From Clostridiales bacterium (GTDB lineage: Bacteria; Bacillota; Clostridia; Oscillospirales; Oscillospiraceae): a DNA stretch of 64,000 bases. The first letter of the stretch is position 1. Every line of letters begins with the position of its first letter. Positions 13,036 to 17,850 of the stretch are shown piece by piece. Location of the stretch: contig JAAYMC010000024.1 of the NCBI GenBank assembly GCA_012521555.1, positions 1,437 to 65,436 on the forward strand, in the 5' to 3' direction. The translations under genes were made by a program, and so were the position numbers. The notes under the pieces were generated by a model, which saw only the letters and a program-made list of their open reading frames with translations, was not told the DNA's origin and ran no database searches.

Positions 13036-13064
13036 TTGACAAGATGGAAATTGTATGGTATCTA
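13036..13064 (+). promoter_or_regulatory. sigmaA-type promoter
   Basis: TTGACA (13036-13041), 17-nt spacer, TGn-TATCTA extended -10 (imperfect). Confidence 0.65.
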
Positions 13065-13068
13065 GTAA

Positions 13069-13095
13069 TTAGCACTCTAACCCGTCGAGTGCTGA
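13069..13095. promoter_or_regulatory. CIRCE element (HrcA operator)
   Basis: TTAGCACTC-TAACCCGTC-GAGTGCTGA, 17/18 match to TTAGCACTC-N9-GAGTGCTAA, just downstream of the -10 box. Confidence 0.85.
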
Positions 13096-13290
13096 CGAAA
13101 GTGAACAAAACAGTGTGACTGTATAGCAAATACAGAGCTGTCTTCCAAAAGAAGAGAGAAACGGTTTTGTGAAGCTTTTGCCTTGTATCGGGTGAACTTC
13201 GCGTTATCCCGCCGGATAACATTATCTTCCCATCAAAGCTGAATGAAGTTCATGACAAGGCGCTGTATCTGGTATACGGCGCCTTTTTCT
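13096..13290 (+). ncRNA. candidate structured leader or small RNA ending in an intrinsic terminator
   Basis: Nested stems identified by eye (see findings) and terminator AAGGCGCTGTAT-CTGGT-ATACGGCGCCTT-TTT at 13257-13288. No recognised family. Confidence 0.45.
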
Positions 13291-13344
13291 GTCTTCTTTT
13301 GCGTCAGCACCGGCGAAAATCCTAAAGAAGAACGAGGTGATGAA

Positions 13345-15192
13345 ATGCAGGCTTTGATACTCGCAGCCGGAATGGGGACGCGGCTGAAGGACCTGACGAA
13401 AAACGCCGCGAAATGCATGGTCAAGGTGGACGGGAAACCGCTGATTGAGCGGATGCTCTGCCAGCTTGACGAGCTGGAGCTGAGTGAGATTCACATCGTC
13501 GTCGGATACATGGCGCGGGACGTCATCTCCTTTGTCCGTTCCCTGAAGATACGCACTCCCGTCCGGTTTATTGAAAACGAACTGTACGCGACGACGAACA
13601 ACATCTACTCGCTGTACATGGCGCGGGAGGTGCTCAAAAAGGACGACACGCTGCTGCTTGAGTCCGACCTCATCTTGAGCGACGGCATCCTCGGCCGGCT
13701 CGCGGACAGCCCGCACCCGAACGTGGCCCTCGTTGCGCCTTATGAAAGCTGGATGGACGGCACCGTCGTCAAAGTCGACGGGGAAGGGAATATCACGCGG
13801 TTTATCGAGAAGAAGGAGTTTGATTTCCGGGAGATCCCGAGCTATTACAAGACCGTCAACATCTACAAGTTCAGCCGGGAGTTTTCCGAGCGGTATTTCG
13901 TGCCGTTCCTCGCCGCCCACATCGAGTCTGAGTGCAAAAACGCGTATTACGAGCACGTTTTGAAGGTGCTGAGCTTCATCGACGGCTCCCTGATAAAAGC
14001 GGAAATTCTGGGCGGCGAGGCATGGTATGAAATCGACGACGCGCAGGACCTCGATATCGCCGAGTCCCTCTTTACGGACTTAAAGTACGACAAAATCAAA
14101 AGCCGCTACGGGGGTTACTGGCGATACCCGAAGCTTTTGGATTTCTGCTACCTTGTCAATCCCTACTACCCGCCGCGCCGGATGCTGGACGAGCTGAAGG
14201 CGAATTTCGAGGCGCTGATTTGCAGCTACCCGTCGGGCATCGAAGTCAACAGCCTGATTGCGGGGAAATACTTCGGCCTGAAGAAAGAGCACGTCTGCCC
14301 GGGTAACGGCGCGGCCGAACTCATCCGCTCCCTGATGGGGGCCCTGAGCGGCAACGTCGGCATCGTATATCCCACTTTTGAGGAATACCCGAACCGCCTG
14401 TGCAAAAACAAAATCGTGCCGTACTACCCGAAAGGCAGGGATTTCACGTATACGGCCAAAGACCTGGCCGATTATTACGGGCGGTTTGCCGTCGAGGCCG
14501 TTATCCTCGTCAACCCGAACAACCCGACGGGCTTTATGCTCGGCCGGGACGAGGTGCTCGCTCTCGCCAAATGGGCGGGGGAGAGAGGAATCCGGCTTGT
14601 GGTGGACGAGTCGTTTGTCGACTTTTGTGACGCGCCGGAAAAGCAGACCCTGCTCTCGGAGGCGATTTTGCAGGACAACACAAACCTTGTCGTGATAAAA
14701 AGCATTTCCAAGTCCTTCGGGGTGCCCGGGCTGCGCCTCGGGATTGCCGCAAGCGCCGACGAGGAGCTCATTCGTTCCCTCAAGAGCGACGTGGCGATCT
14801 GGAACATCAACTCCATCGCCGAGTGCTTCCTGCAGATTTTTGAAAAATACAAAAAGGATTACGACCAGGCCCTTGAGACATTCCGCCTCGTCCGCAGGCA
14901 GTTTATCGAGAAGCTGCGCCATGTCCCGAATCTCAGGGTGCTGCCCACGCAGGCCAACTTCGTCCTGTGCGAAGTCCTGGGCGGGTGCTCGGCGGAAAAG
15001 CTCGCCGAGACGCTGCTGTGCGAGCATAACATCCTGATAAAGGACCTTGGCGGCAAAAAGGGCATCAGCGGCGAGTATATCCGCGTGGCCGTCAGAACGC
15101 GGGAAGACAACAGCCGTCTTGCCGCCGCCTTGAGCAAGGTCCTCGGGCAGTCCGGCCGGGTCAGGCAGTACAATCTCGGCATGAGCGGATAG
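13345..15192 (+). CDS. fused LicC-like nucleotidyltransferase and class I/II PLP-dependent enzyme (CobD/HisC-like)
   Basis: N-terminus MQALILAAGMGTRL...KCMV...TNNIYSL...LLESDL...WYEIDD. C-terminus GNGAAELI, NPNNPTG, VVDESF, KSISKSFGVPGLRLG (PLP lysine). GAGGTG RBS. Confidence 0.85.
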   Translation: MQALILAAGMGTRLKDLTKNAAKCMVKVDGKPLIERMLCQLDELELSEIHIVVGYMARDVISFVRSLKIRTPVRFIENELYATTNNIYSLYMAREVLKKDDTLLLESDLILSDGILGRLADSPHPNVALVAPYESWMDGTVVKVDGEGNITRFIEKKEFDFREIPSYYKTVNIYKFSREFSERYFVPFLAAHIESECKNAYYEHVLKVLSFIDGSLIKAEILGGEAWYEIDDAQDLDIAESLFTDLKYDKIKSRYGGYWRYPKLLDFCYLVNPYYPPRRMLDELKANFEALICSYPSGIEVNSLIAGKYFGLKKEHVCPGNGAAELIRSLMGALSGNVGIVYPTFEEYPNRLCKNKIVPYYPKGRDFTYTAKDLADYYGRFAVEAVILVNPNNPTGFMLGRDEVLALAKWAGERGIRLVVDESFVDFCDAPEKQTLLSEAILQDNTNLVVIKSISKSFGVPGLRLGIAASADEELIRSLKSDVAIWNINSIAECFLQIFEKYKKDYDQALETFRLVRRQFIEKLRHVPNLRVLPTQANFVLCEVLGGCSAEKLAETLLCEHNILIKDLGGKKGISGEYIRVAVRTREDNSRLAAALSKVLGQSGRVRQYNLGMSG

Positions 15193-15202
15193 AGGTCATG
15201 GC

Positions 15203-15835
15203 ATGATGGAGAAAAAAGAAAAAGAGTACACAATGCTGCACTTCCTGGCAGACATACCCAATCTCTGTTCCCTCGCGGGGCTGCTCTGCTCGTTTCTCGG
15301 CGTCTATTTTGCAATCCGCGGGCAGTTTCACTATGCCCTCGTGGGCGTTTTGTGGGCCGTCGTCTTCGACTGGCTGGACGGGATGGTCGCCAAAAGGATG
15401 AAAGACAGGGACGATAAGCACCGCGCCGTGGGCGTGCAGCTCGACTCGCTGATTGACATCGTCAGTTTCGGCGTCTTTCCGGCCGTCTTTCTGCTCAGTT
15501 TCGGGGAGTTCAAACCCGCCTTCATCCCGGGCGCGTTTCTCATCGTGGGCGGCGCGGCGCTGCGGCTCGGCTATTTCAACGTCTTCGGGATGATCGACAA
15601 GCACACGTACAGGGGGCTTGCGCTGGACAACAACGTCCTCCTGCTCGCGCTGATTTTCCTGCTGGAGCGGCTGATCCCGCGCGGGGTGTTTGCCGCCGTC
15701 CTCTACGCCGTCCTGATGGCGCTGCTCGCGCTCAATCTGGCGCCCATCCGCACGTATAAGTTCGGCGGCAAGTGGTTTTACGCGCTGCTGGGCTATGTCG
15801 TCGTCATGACGGCCTGCTACGTCTTTCTTTTGTAA
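15203..15835 (+). CDS. CDP-alcohol phosphatidyltransferase family protein
   Basis: DWLDGMVAK...GVQLDSLID matches the DGxxAR...GxxxDxxxD signature; multiple TM segments. Confidence 0.9.
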   Translation: MMEKKEKEYTMLHFLADIPNLCSLAGLLCSFLGVYFAIRGQFHYALVGVLWAVVFDWLDGMVAKRMKDRDDKHRAVGVQLDSLIDIVSFGVFPAVFLLSFGEFKPAFIPGAFLIVGGAALRLGYFNVFGMIDKHTYRGLALDNNVLLLALIFLLERLIPRGVFAAVLYAVLMALLALNLAPIRTYKFGGKWFYALLGYVVVMTACYVFLL

Positions 15836-15881
15836 CGCTCGCGCCGTAAGGTGCGCGCGCTAATAAGCGCGTTTCATATAA

Positions 15882-16884: not shown

Positions 16885-17850
16885 ATGAGGACAGGCGCAA
16901 GCCTGCCCCCATATATGGCAAACACTGAGACTTCTGGGCGCAATGTCGATAGATATGAGGCAATGTCCTCGAATGAAATAAACGTCGGCGGGGCGACCGT
17001 CCTCGACTGCGGCGTGCACGCCGAAGGCGGCTTTGAGGCCGGCTTGCTGCTGGCCCGCGCGTGCCTCGGCGGCCTTGCGGACGTGACGCTCATCTGGGCC
17101 GATTACGAGGGCTACCGCTGGCCGAGCGTCTCGGTGGCGACGGACCATCCGGTCCGCGCCTGCATGGCGTCCCAGTACGCGGGCTGGCCCATCAAATGCG
17201 GCGGGAAGCTGTACATGGGCTCCGGCCCGGCCTGCGCCGTCGTCTGCCGGGGGAGCCTGTTCCGCGAGCTCGAGTACAAGGATGAGACGGACGTTATCGT
17301 CCTCTGCCTTGAGTGCCCGCGCCTGCCGGACGAAGACGTCGTCCGCCTCGTAGCCGGAGAGTGCGGGTGCTCTCCCGAACGGCTGTACATCCTCGCCGCG
17401 CCGACGGCGTCCGTCGCCGGGACGGTGCAGGTGGCCGCCCGCGCGCTGGAGACGGCGCTGTTTAAGCTCAGGCGGCTCAAATACGACCTCGGGAAAATCG
17501 TCTCCGGCATGGCCGTGTGCCCCTTATCGCCCGTCGCGGGCTCGACGAAGCACGCGCTCGGCCGCACGAACGACGCCATCTCCTACGGCGCCGTGGCGCA
17601 GATTCATGTGCGCGACGAGGACGATGCGCTGCGTAAAATCGTCCCGCTGGTGCCGTCGTGCGCGGCGCCGGAGTACGGGAAGTCGTATGTCGACATCAAA
17701 ACCGAGCACAACAACTTCTTTAATCTCAGCCCGGAGCAGTTTAACCCCGCCGTCATCGAGATGTGCAACTTAAGCACGGGCCGCGTGTTCCGCGCCGGCG
17801 CCATCCGGGCGGACATCCTCGCGCGCTCCTTCGCCGTCGAAGCCTTTTAG
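16885..17850 (+). CDS. mch: methenyltetrahydromethanopterin cyclohydrolase homolog
   Basis: GATVLDCG, CLGGLA, TDHP...CMASQYAGW, MGSGPA, APTASVAGTVQVAARALET, GRTNDAI, YGKS and a C-terminal NLSTGRVFRAG follow the Mch family in order. Start uncertain (16885 or 16915). Confidence 0.85.
   Translation: MRTGASLPPYMANTETSGRNVDRYEAMSSNEINVGGATVLDCGVHAEGGFEAGLLLARACLGGLADVTLIWADYEGYRWPSVSVATDHPVRACMASQYAGWPIKCGGKLYMGSGPACAVVCRGSLFRELEYKDETDVIVLCLECPRLPDEDVVRLVAGECGCSPERLYILAAPTASVAGTVQVAARALETALFKLRRLKYDLGKIVSGMAVCPLSPVAGSTKHALGRTNDAISYGAVAQIHVRDEDDALRKIVPLVPSCAAPEYGKSYVDIKTEHNNFFNLSPEQFNPAVIEMCNLSTGRVFRAGAIRADILARSFAVEAF

Follow-up and report, generated by a model that had tools for sequence, protein, structure and literature searches.

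A cytidylyltransferase-pyridoxal phosphate enzyme fusion and a PssA-fold phosphotransferase form an apparently mobile cassette, a candidate CDP-ethanolamine route preceded by a CIRCE element in Firmicutes

What does a bacterium make with a gene that fuses a cytidylyltransferase to a pyridoxal phosphate (PLP) enzyme and that is followed, 10 nt after its stop codon, by a cytidine diphosphate (CDP)-alcohol phosphotransferase gene? The question is raised by two adjoining genes in a 64,000-nt stretch of contig JAAYMC010000024.1 from a Clostridiales bacterium (assembly GCA_012521555.1), taken here as a whole and called the window. The fusion gene occupies 13345-15192 on the forward strand (615 aa, stop codon 15190-15192), and its partner, called P2 here, is the sole CDP-alcohol phosphotransferase gene in the 64 kb. 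An original prediction had described the locus in these terms, and its description is borne out: the fusion contains PF00483/PF12804 and a CobD-like PF00155 domain, P2 belongs to PF01066, has the catalytic Asp motif and opens with an ATG at 15203, and inspection of the operon flanks revealed no kinase, LicD or transporter gene. The start that it had placed at 13345 is also confirmed, because the ribosome-binding site GAGGTGA stands just upstream and the aligned homologues open at MQALILAAG, which corresponds to ATG 13345. The automatic call instead extends the gene by 34 codons (13243-13344), running through a conserved terminator hairpin of the leader. As the best explanation of the two genes, we propose that the fusion would take a ubiquitous phospho-amino acid, most likely O-phospho-L-serine, and use cytidine triphosphate (CTP) and PLP to form CDP-ethanolamine, from which P2, as a PssA-fold membrane enzyme, would transfer phosphoethanolamine to a hydroxyl acceptor with release of cytidine monophosphate (CMP). 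The most likely acceptor would be sn-1,2-diacylglycerol or its ether/plasmalogen analogue, giving phosphatidylethanolamine (PE) without CDP-diacylglycerol, PssA or Psd. We are fairly confident that a CDP-amino-alcohol is formed and that P2 uses it; that it is CDP-ethanolamine derived from phosphoserine is favoured with less assurance, and the whole chain from phosphoserine through CDP-ethanolamine to PE has about an even chance of being right.

A genome scan with the fusion as query (one genome per species) returned at least 66 fusion loci. A P2 homologue was found only in the seven closest (66-86 % identity), which are from Bacillota, Desulfotomaculaceae, Syntrophomonadaceae and Oscillospiraceae metagenome-assembled genomes, and it was the next gene in all seven. 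We also scanned metagenome contigs with a P2-family alignment as seed and obtained 80 loci, 56 of which had at least 1.9 kb of upstream sequence and could be judged; loci were inspected within about +/-8 kb. An NTP-transferase and a CobD-like PLP gene lay directly upstream of P2 in 51 of these 56 loci (~91 %), in constant order, either fused (13 loci, ~65 % identity to the window protein) or split (38 loci, 31-40 % identity), while two of the remaining loci had the PLP gene only and three had neither partner. The fused form occurs in Firmicutes and the two-gene form in Desulfobacterota genomes, and in two loci (L154 and L158) neighbouring genes overlap by their start and stop codons, the arrangement of translational coupling. 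The pairing of fusion and P2 is far beyond chance, and the window fusion reads as the Rosetta-stone version of a three-activity cassette. The flanks of this cassette differ in every lineage and include toxin-antitoxin or transposase genes in some, suggesting that it is self-contained, mobile and fed by common metabolites; no kinase gene was present in any cassette examined. Between fused and split cassettes (L072-L151 against the window), P2 retains 56-63 % identity and its cytidylyltransferase and PLP partners only 31-40 %, an asymmetry that may reflect a stronger constraint on P2 or its separate exchange.

P2 homologues were also seen in another setting. In Spirochaetaceae, a homologue with 62 % identity (L068:8001-8711, and L069) has no cytidylyltransferase or PLP neighbours and stands in a cluster with FabA, alpha-oxoamine-synthase-like, acyl carrier protein, ketoreductase, enoyl-CoA hydratase and HMG-CoA-synthase genes, possibly for an unusual amino-lipid backbone.

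The N-terminal domain of the fusion indicates the type of substrate. Against the PDB it matched LicC (1JYK) with 69.6 bits and aligned over aa 2-239 with Tde-PntC (6PD1), from the PntC-AEPT fusion Tde1415. The signature GxG(T/S)R...K is present as AAGMGTRLKDLTKNAAK23, in which K23, at the place of the catalytic Lys, is nearly invariant in the family alignment; for FrbH, PMC6697681 reports that the K38A mutation abolishes activity. E106 and E203 align with Glu104 and Glu196 of Tde-PntC, which contact the primary amine of 2-aminoethylphosphonate (AEP) (PMC6697681), whereas LicC has Asp at both of these amine-facing positions, so that the pocket differs there from that of LicC. The Glu pair points to a small primary amine as substrate. 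The cytidylyltransferase motifs are kept in the fused form with P2, the fused form with LicD and the split form.

The LicD-associated form comes from the other ~55 fusion loci (49-60 % identity), found without P2 in Akkermansia, Bacteroidales, many Clostridia, Bacillus, Paenibacillus, Planomicrobium, Enterococcus and Treponema. These fusions sit in glycan/teichoic-type clusters with LicD (34 loci), TagF-like, GT2 and flippase genes. LicD enzymes move the phospho-alcohol of a CDP-alcohol onto glycans, as in the Lic pathway. Since LicD fills the transferase role in clusters that are otherwise equivalent, and since the active-site motifs of both fusion domains are alike in all three contexts, the product of the fusion is thus expected to be a CDP-activated head group. 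A CDP-activated small primary-amine head group, as originally predicted, is what the LicD pairing and the Glu pair support.

The paralogous fusions of the LicD-type clusters (L008-L064; for example L010:9824-10936, L038:5957-6877 and L050:11068-11958) directly precede an octopine-dehydrogenase-like gene in 19 loci and an ornithine-cyclodeaminase/mu-crystallin-like gene in 17, LicD also being there; DUF1015 fills the position in Bacillus, Planomicrobium and Enterococcus. The octopine-dehydrogenase-like and cyclodeaminase-like genes suggest a decoration with N-(carboxyalkyl)-ethanolamine-phosphate of the opine type; opine-type ethanolamine-phosphate groups occur in Proteus O-antigens.

The C-terminal PLP domain obtained its best NCBIfam score with CobD (TIGR01140, 187.7 bits, against 141.5 bits for HisC, TIGR01141), and the split-form PLP enzyme is CobD-like as well (177.6 against 137.2 bits). 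The scores of the domain lie below the equivalog cut-offs of both models (290.55 for CobD, 276.55 for HisC) and the flanks hold no cobamide genes, indicating a relative and not an orthologue of CobD. Its best PDB match was 6OUX (E = 4e-48, 167 bits), followed by 3FTB (117 bits) and Salmonella CobD 1LC5 (98 bits), and the best HisC-named structure besides 3FTB scored ~90 bits. 6OUX is linked to SMUL_1544 through a shared product name, and the PLP domain has the 'CYLxNPY' motif in common with 6OUX. In Sulfurospirillum, SMUL_1544 is the gene governing the synthesis of norcobamide, which carries an ethanolamine-phosphate linker. The Schiff-base lysine, K456, lies in KSISKSFG and aligns with the CobD lysine. 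On these hidden Markov model scores, the ranking of structures and the precedent of FrbH, the choice for the domain, decarboxylase or TRANSAMINASE, likely falls on decarboxylase.

FrbH, from the FR-900098 pathway of Streptomyces rubellomurinus, gives the decarboxylase reading of the original prediction a characterised precedent. As described in PMC6697681 and PMC8976061, its N-terminal, PF12804-type cytidylyltransferase acts on L-2-amino-4-phosphonobutyrate, which is O-phosphoserine with CH2 replacing the ester oxygen, and its C-terminal PLP decarboxylase then acts on the CMP conjugate, yielding a CMP-activated amino-alkyl phosphorus head group. FrbH itself was compared by description, and the sequence comparison was made through an FrbH-like protein of Saccharothrix ecbatanensis (L158), a 618-aa fusion that aligns with the window protein from end to end at 35 % identity; on this homology, the window fusion probably decarboxylates an amino acid or its CMP conjugate. 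The Saccharothrix fusion adjoins Lys/Orn-N-oxygenase-like and aminoglycoside-N-acetyltransferase-like genes, families that we take to match FrbG and FrbF, and its stop codon overlaps the start of a P2-like gene 36 % identical to P2. The two systems also differ. FrbH handles a phosphonate in an antibiotic cluster dependent on phosphoenolpyruvate mutase (Ppm), and its product is released by hydrolysis; the window has no Ppm, primary metabolism would supply the presumed substrate as a phosphate ester, and a membrane phosphotransferase would receive the product.

The Saccharothrix cluster (L158:4057-12973) holds genes for the N-acetyltransferase, the N-oxygenase-like protein, the FrbH-like fusion, the P2-like protein, a HAD hydrolase, two ATP-grasp ligases and an MFS exporter, without Ppm. 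This apparent natural-product cluster could make an analogue of FR-900098/fosmidomycin with a phosphate ester, akin to fosfoxacin, linked to an amino acid or peptide.

Could the PLP domain be a transaminase? This caveat, already part of the original prediction, has a precedent, since the transaminase Cj1437 belongs to the same enzyme group as Cj1436, a decarboxylase that forms ethanolamine phosphate from serine phosphate for use in a surface structure (PMC12409886). A transaminase would form serinol phosphate from dihydroxyacetone phosphate (the Cj1437 reaction), a compound as ubiquitous as phosphoserine, or AEP from phosphonoacetaldehyde in phosphonate clusters, and the head group transferred would be serinol phosphate or another amino alcohol. 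Besides the sizeable HisC score, it would suit a rumen Treponema contig (L057), where a fusion whose PLP-site motifs are nearly the same stands ahead of a CTP_transf_like-Ppm fusion and Ppd, in the place that the PntC-AEPT fusion has in T. denticola (PMC6697681). However, CobD outscores HisC by ~40 bits, not only in the fused enzymes but also in the split ones, which are very divergent, the best structure match is of the SMUL_1544 type, and FrbH, the sole characterised enzyme of this architecture, is a decarboxylase. Ppm/Ppd moreover occur near only 2 of 62 fusion loci and near no P2 cassette of at least 55 % identity. In the Akkermansia case (L054), Ppd is fused to an Fe-alcohol dehydrogenase, which is the hydroxyethylphosphonate route and needs no transaminase, so the co-location of fusion and phosphonate genes may just reflect mixed surface-decoration loci. 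We thus regard a transaminase as rather unlikely.

If the domain is a decarboxylase, phosphoserine is the most economical substrate, given the architecture shared with FrbH, the affinity to SMUL_1544 and the lack of a kinase; phosphoserine is a central metabolite, so no kinase is needed, and the kinase-free logic of the original prediction is upheld. Decarboxylation could come first, as in CobD and SMUL_1544, or cytidylylation could come first and be followed by decarboxylation of CDP-serine, as in FrbH. A CDP-serine intermediate is plausible since FrbH cytidylylates first and CDP-amino-acid intermediates are real in Clostridioides difficile FtaABCD. Of the two products that had been put forward, CDP-ethanolamine or CDP-aminopropanol, the first is favoured by the SMUL_1544-type match, the FrbH isostere and the lack of a threonine kinase, and the second has lost ground. 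The second would arise if O-phospho-L-threonine gave CDP-1-amino-2-propanol, or O-phospho-L-homoserine gave CDP-3-aminopropanol, leading to an unusual amino-alcohol phospholipid isobaric with N-methyl-PE. CobD proper uses phosphothreonine and TIGR01140 is the best model; phosphohomoserine, too, is a universal metabolite, and the product of FrbH carries a 3-aminopropyl chain. Yet no threonine kinase is found in any cassette, the closest structure is not Salmonella CobD (98 against 167 bits), the FrbH substrate is isosteric with phosphoserine and not with phosphohomoserine, and one methyltransferase family accompanies both these cassettes and AEP-type loci. A phosphothreonine or phosphohomoserine substrate therefore appears highly improbable.

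This methyltransferase family, of class I, S-adenosylmethionine-dependent and with a hydrophobic C-terminal tail, accompanies P2-type genes at L130:3075-3923, L144, L109, L116, L155:778-1662 (-) and L157:8810-9703 (-). It is present in both phosphoserine-type cassettes and an aminoethylphosphonate-type cluster, and we regard it as a candidate for N-methylation of the aminoethyl group (compare PmtA and FtaC).

P2 carries the PF01066 superfamily motif as D56-x2-D59-G-x2-A-K64-R...G77-x3-D81-x3-D85. K64, followed by R65, is Arg in most family members, and the spacing of the motif is 4 residues longer than in MjPSS, the M. jannaschii enzyme. The R-to-K change in DGxxAR was considered as a trait of the P2 family and rejected, as the family has DWADGxxAR and K64 is lineage-specific. 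The family numbers thousands of sequences in Clostridia, Desulfobacterota, Spirochaetes, Chloroflexota and Actinomycetota; a search gave more than 2,300 matches, of which the top 120, spread over Firmicutes, Desulfobacterota and Spirochaetes, all had about 59 % identity or more. P2 is at least 56-60 % identical across phyla, with TYxGLALDNN invariant, and a search of representatives gave a continuum of scores with no clean P2 clade. Against the pssA model TIGR00473, P2 scored 73.7 bits (cut-off 107), and against the archaeal NF038087, 85.1 bits (cut-off 240). Together with 54 relatives it appears below the PssA equivalog cut-off, the best of the 55 having E = 8.7e-26, an estimated ~90 bits. 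The AlphaFold (AF2) model (mean predicted local distance difference test 88.5) has an interfacial helix, eight helices and a two-stranded sheet, which is the PssA architecture, and its best Foldseek matches were MjPSS structures 7B1K/7POW (template-modelling score 0.63-0.73), far ahead of PIPS, DIPPS, PgsA and AF2299. A fold match combined with a score under the cut-off makes P2 PssA-like and not a PssA orthologue. No eukaryotic cholinephosphotransferase (CPT) or ethanolaminephosphotransferase (EPT) structure was among the top 50 Foldseek matches, and membership of P2 in the Kennedy-type CPT/EPT family is not supported, although it may possibly work like one.

Does P2, then, use the product of the fusion as donor? 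The nearest enzymes suggest a conventional CDP-diacylglycerol-dependent synthase like PssA or Pcs, with the fusion product used elsewhere or serving as acceptor or precursor: the best family and fold matches of P2 are all CDP-diacylglycerol enzymes, and its relatives are automatically annotated as phosphatidylserine synthases. Such an enzyme would leave the cytidylyltransferase without a role despite the ~91 % co-occurrence and the translational coupling. Ethanolamine phosphate and CDP-ethanolamine offer no suitable hydroxyl, P2 and the sampled relatives appear to stay below the PssA cut-off, and no psd gene was found in the window or in any flank examined. Two relatives are informative. In L157, P2 relative P0391 is paired with a cytidylyltransferase of unrelated fold (PF01467), so that the constant partner is an activity and not one protein family. 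In L155 (152-3911), P2 relative P0250 (39 % identity) stands beside a methyltransferase, Ppm (EDKTFPKTNS, with the diagnostic EDKxxxxxNS) and Ppd. As AEP has no hydroxyl, the only reaction open to the transferase of L155 is phosphonyl transfer from CMP-AEP to an alcohol, and a CDP-diacylglycerol-dependent synthase is chemically impossible there; we propose P0250 as a candidate CMP-AEP:alcohol phosphonyl transferase for predicted phosphonolipids. Clusters of the 'Burkholderiales_CDP-OH' type with Ppm, Ppd, AEPT and PntC are predicted, unverified phosphonolipid loci (PMC8942020). The CDP-diacylglycerol alternative is therefore improbable. The almost invariable, ordered and often translationally coupled linkage to a cytidylyltransferase, the LicD equivalence, L157 and L155 all argue that P2 takes a CDP- or CMP-activated head group, which makes the donor originally predicted, the head group of the fusion, the most likely one. 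We consider its use by P2 highly probable, and P2 a candidate CDP-ethanolamine:alcohol phosphoethanolamine transferase.

The invariant Asp of GLALDNN was also examined as a strict marker of a CDP-amine donor. It is present in P0241, P0247 and P0250 and absent from two LysE-linked relatives, but the marker was rejected because the fusion-coupled P2-like protein of Saccharothrix has GLPIVHN; it may still fit that case, in which the amine is probably N-acylated. The two distant PssA-like relatives without this Asp (L156:498-1589 and the contig of P0343) adjoin a LysE-type amino-acid exporter and not a cytidylyltransferase.

When would the cassette be switched on? In the 380-nt region before the operon lies a CIRCE (controlling inverted repeat of chaperone expression) element with one mismatch to TTAGCACTC-N9-GAGTGCTAA, the single match in the 64 kb, with 0 expected from 100 shuffles. 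This consensus serves as operator for HrcA, which represses groESL and dnaK. We observed CIRCE, with 0-3 mismatches, in all 20 fused-type loci with P2 that had enough upstream sequence (~14 distinct lineages) and in none of the ~55 LicD-type or ~45 split-type loci. It lies 229-402 nt from the fusion start in 13 of the 14 non-window lineages and 667 nt away in L122, and in all 14 other lineages inspected a TTGACA-17-TATAAT-like arrangement stands just upstream of it; the window promoter escaped the consensus scan because the rule requires T at position 6 of the -10 hexamer. Since CIRCE overlaps the promoter and is the HrcA operator, we predict that the cassette of Firmicutes is induced by heat or protein-folding stress, with a second input by attenuation. 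Transcription would start at the sigma-A-type promoter under CIRCE, pass through the leader terminator and be on under folding or heat stress. Normally groESL and dnaK make up the whole HrcA regulon, so that a metabolic member, and a conserved one, is unusual; this link is independent of the chemistry. The original prediction had missed the CIRCE operator, the leader terminator and the widespread, mobile three-activity cassette.

The leader folds with a minimum free energy of -90.2 kcal/mol (z = -4.3 against shuffles), and an Rfam scan gave no family at E<=1 besides one chance-level sRNA match. Its conserved parts are the promoter, CIRCE, a second block, aatGTGCAGCGCTaaat, in most lineages, and the terminator hairpin, the remainder being variable; the window and the L001 lineage have a variant first block. 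The hairpin is present in all leaders, and its GC stem of 10 bp is kept in 10 lineages mostly by sequence conservation, with one pair showing compensatory changes. The block aatGTGCAGCGCTaaat resembles the 3' arm of the terminator and, on this resemblance, could be an anti-terminator, the leader being a candidate attenuator or riboswitch.

The acceptor is the weakest link of the proposed explanation. Diacylglycerol ranks first, with an even chance, and a soluble acceptor second, with a distinctly smaller one. For diacylglycerol, the model and the alignment indicate that helices 7 and 8 and the small beta-sheet are retained in P2 and include several invariant residues; in MjPSS these elements enclose the acyl chains, helices 7 and 8 forming the channel (PMC8633023). 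The predicted phosphonolipid clusters, by analogy, speak for a lipid acceptor as well. DIPPS-type enzymes, which lack these elements, show with DIPPS (4MND) that membrane CDP-alcohol transferases can act on soluble substrates (PMC8633023). P2 might likewise use CDP-ethanolamine as donor and keep a PssA-type acceptor, L-serine or a small polar alcohol, yielding serine-phosphoethanolamine (the EC 2.7.8.4 reaction). In MjPSS, Asp62, Ser63, Asp66, Phe105 and Arg101 hold the acceptor serine and a nearby anion, and the GLP(I/S)PAG stretch contacts the diacylglycerol end of CDP-diacylglycerol (PMC8633023). All five residues are kept in P2 (D81, S82, D85, F125, R121), and the invariant, polar TYxGLALDNN replaces GLP(I/S)PAG. 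With an intact serine site and only the diacylglycerol-contact stretch remodelled, a serine acceptor is thus the shortest path from a PssA ancestor. The product would be a stress-induced solute, in analogy to the di-myo-inositol phosphate of IPCT-DIPPS under heat stress and in line with the chaperone regulon in which CIRCE places the operon, or a precursor extended by ATP-grasp ligases. A 423-aa ATP-grasp protein that resembles LdmS and BesA, which are L-amino-acid ligases, is indeed encoded directly after P2 in 11-15 Desulfobacterota-type split cassettes and may modify the head group or a serine-containing product, and Saccharothrix has two such genes beside the HAD hydrolase and MFS exporter. 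The ATP-grasp gene is, however, absent from the window and from all fused-type cassettes, and we know of no serine-phosphoethanolamine-type solute from bacteria. A soluble product is therefore possible, with perhaps half the weight given to diacylglycerol or a little less.

Several observations weigh against the route from phosphoserine to PE. The PLP domain is under the CobD equivalog cut-off, shares its enzyme group with the transaminase Cj1437 (PMC12409886), and in L057 a fusion adjoins Ppm and Ppd, where a transaminase is expected. The nearest characterised relatives of P2, PssA and Pcs, use CDP-diacylglycerol as donor, and the link to AEP comes from one locus (L155) and literature predictions. 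P2 keeps the acceptor-serine residues of MjPSS, and both pockets would have to change for a diacylglycerol acceptor but only one for serine. Genes of lipid metabolism were seen beside no cassette, the flanks being variable and sometimes mobile, and the ATP-grasp ligase-type genes after P2 suit a product with a free amino-acid moiety. A broader and more speculative proposal, which we consider unlikely, is a small-molecule arm of the heat-shock response: a mobile CDP-diacylglycerol-independent route from phosphoserine via CDP-serine/CDP-ethanolamine, present in several anaerobic phyla and drawn in Firmicutes into the HrcA/CIRCE regulon behind an undescribed leader attenuator, would make PE on demand as a 'lipid chaperone' or a soluble serine-phosphoethanolamine-type chemical chaperone, and P2 would be the gene for the orphan EC 2.7.8.4.

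How does the cassette compare with known systems? In Pnt pathways, too, a small primary amine is handled by a cytidylyltransferase of the LicC family, in some cases as a fusion with a PLP enzyme (Tde1415), and the clustered CDP-alcohol phosphotransferase is presumed to be lipid-directed (PMC6697681, PMC8942020). Those pathways yield C-P compounds and depend on Ppm, Ppd and a class V transaminase, whereas the window has a CobD-like domain and no phosphonate genes. The eukaryotic Kennedy pathway (ECT/PCYT2, EPT/CEPT1) also leads from phospho-alcohol to CDP-alcohol to diacylglycerol, with a DGxxAR...GxxxDxxxD transferase. In the window, by contrast, there is no kinase or free ethanolamine, the cytidylyltransferase has the LicC fold and not PF01467, and P2 is small and PssA-folded; by analogy, the module would function as a Kennedy pathway in which phospho-amino-acid decarboxylation stands in for the kinase. 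A bacterial Kennedy-type precedent is the LicCA-CPT CDP-choline pathway of Treponema denticola, to our knowledge the only bacterial route of this type. MjPSS (PssA subclass II) shares with P2 the full-length fold, the metal-binding Asp quartet and the equivalents of Arg101, Phe105 and Ser63; P2 differs by its 21-23 % identity, a 4-residue insert with a conserved Arg after DGxxAR, GLALDNN, and a cytidylyltransferase context instead of psd. CobD, SMUL_1544 and Cj1436 are relatives of the PLP domain, but stand alone in cobamide or capsule loci and use the phosphate ester un-cytidylylated. IPCT-DIPPS and FtaABCD also combine a cytidylyltransferase with a phosphotransferase, by which an alcohol receives a CDP-activated polar group, and FtaABCD has a CDP-amino-acid intermediate (CDP-threonine) with a methyltransferase acting on the CDP conjugate. 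They differ in head groups and acceptors, FtaD being TagF-like and not PF01066 and DIPPS lacking helices 7 and 8.

A full-text literature search found no description of the cassette, its product or its CIRCE control, only the analogues FrbH, PntC, FtaABCD, Cj1436/1437 and MjPSS. Textbook bacterial PE synthesis proceeds through CDP-diacylglycerol, PssA and Psd. If the proposed route is correct, a compact and widespread cassette would be a second de novo route to the ethanolamine head group in anaerobes, starting from a serine-pathway intermediate and relying on FrbH-type chemistry, so far known only from a phosphonate antibiotic. Many automatic annotations as 'aminotransferase class I/II' and 'phosphatidylserine synthase' would be reassigned, long-predicted phosphonolipid clusters would gain a testable transferase, and the reading of intact-polar-lipid biomarkers in anoxic sediments and digesters would be affected.

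The coordinates of the features are collected in Table 1.

Table 1. Features of the cassette and its leader (window positions unless a locus is named)
Feature	Position	Strand	Details
Promoter-like site, sigma-A-type	13036-13064	+	-35 TTGACA 13036-13041, 17-nt spacer, -10 TATCTA 13059-13064; read from sequence
CIRCE element (HrcA operator)	13069-13095	+	TTAGCACTC-taacccgtc-GAGTGCTGA
Structured leader	13096-13344	+	~250 nt; no credible ORF; ~160 nt before hairpin
Fusion open reading frame (ORF) as listed	13243-15192	+	automatic call P0001, 649 aa
Intrinsic-terminator-like hairpin and T-run	13257-13295	+	GGCGCTGTAT...ATACGGCGCC; from terminator scan; candidate attenuator
Ribosome-binding site GAGGTGA	13334-13340	+	4 nt 5' of ATG 13345; (G/A)AGGTGA invariant across leader alignment
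N-terminal domain, LicC/PntC/FrbH-type cytidylyltransferase	13345-14079 (aa 1-245)	+	PF00483/PF12804 at aa 3-180
C-terminal domain, CobD/SMUL_1544/FrbH-type PLP enzyme	14104-15192 (aa 254-615)	+	PF00155 at aa 301-596
P2 gene	15203-15835	+	210-aa CDP-alcohol phosphotransferase, PF01066
GC-rich inverted repeat	15838-15860	+	after P2 stop, without U-tract; read from sequence; unflagged by terminator scan
CIRCE in other loci	L001:7109-7135, L002:7689-7715, L004:7689-7715, L082:3821-3847, L105:189-215		14 more, plus the window
ATP-grasp genes after P2	L070:8668-9939, L102, L111, L101, L112, L138-L140, L146, L150, L151

The operon is flanked by a GyrI-like gene upstream and by a polysaccharide deacetylase gene on the opposite strand downstream, and the inverted repeat after P2 might tentatively be taken as its end. 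A digester metatranscriptome contig covers 14839-16008 and spans the junction of the fusion and P2. Its depth is flat across all neighbouring genes on both strands, so DNA carry-over is possible and the contig does not prove transcription or induction. Further downstream, an ORF at 16885-17850 (+) resembles MCH (PF02289, the methenyl-tetrahydromethanopterin cyclohydrolase family), an unusual family for Bacillota, to which this genome, apparently from an anaerobic digester, seems to belong.

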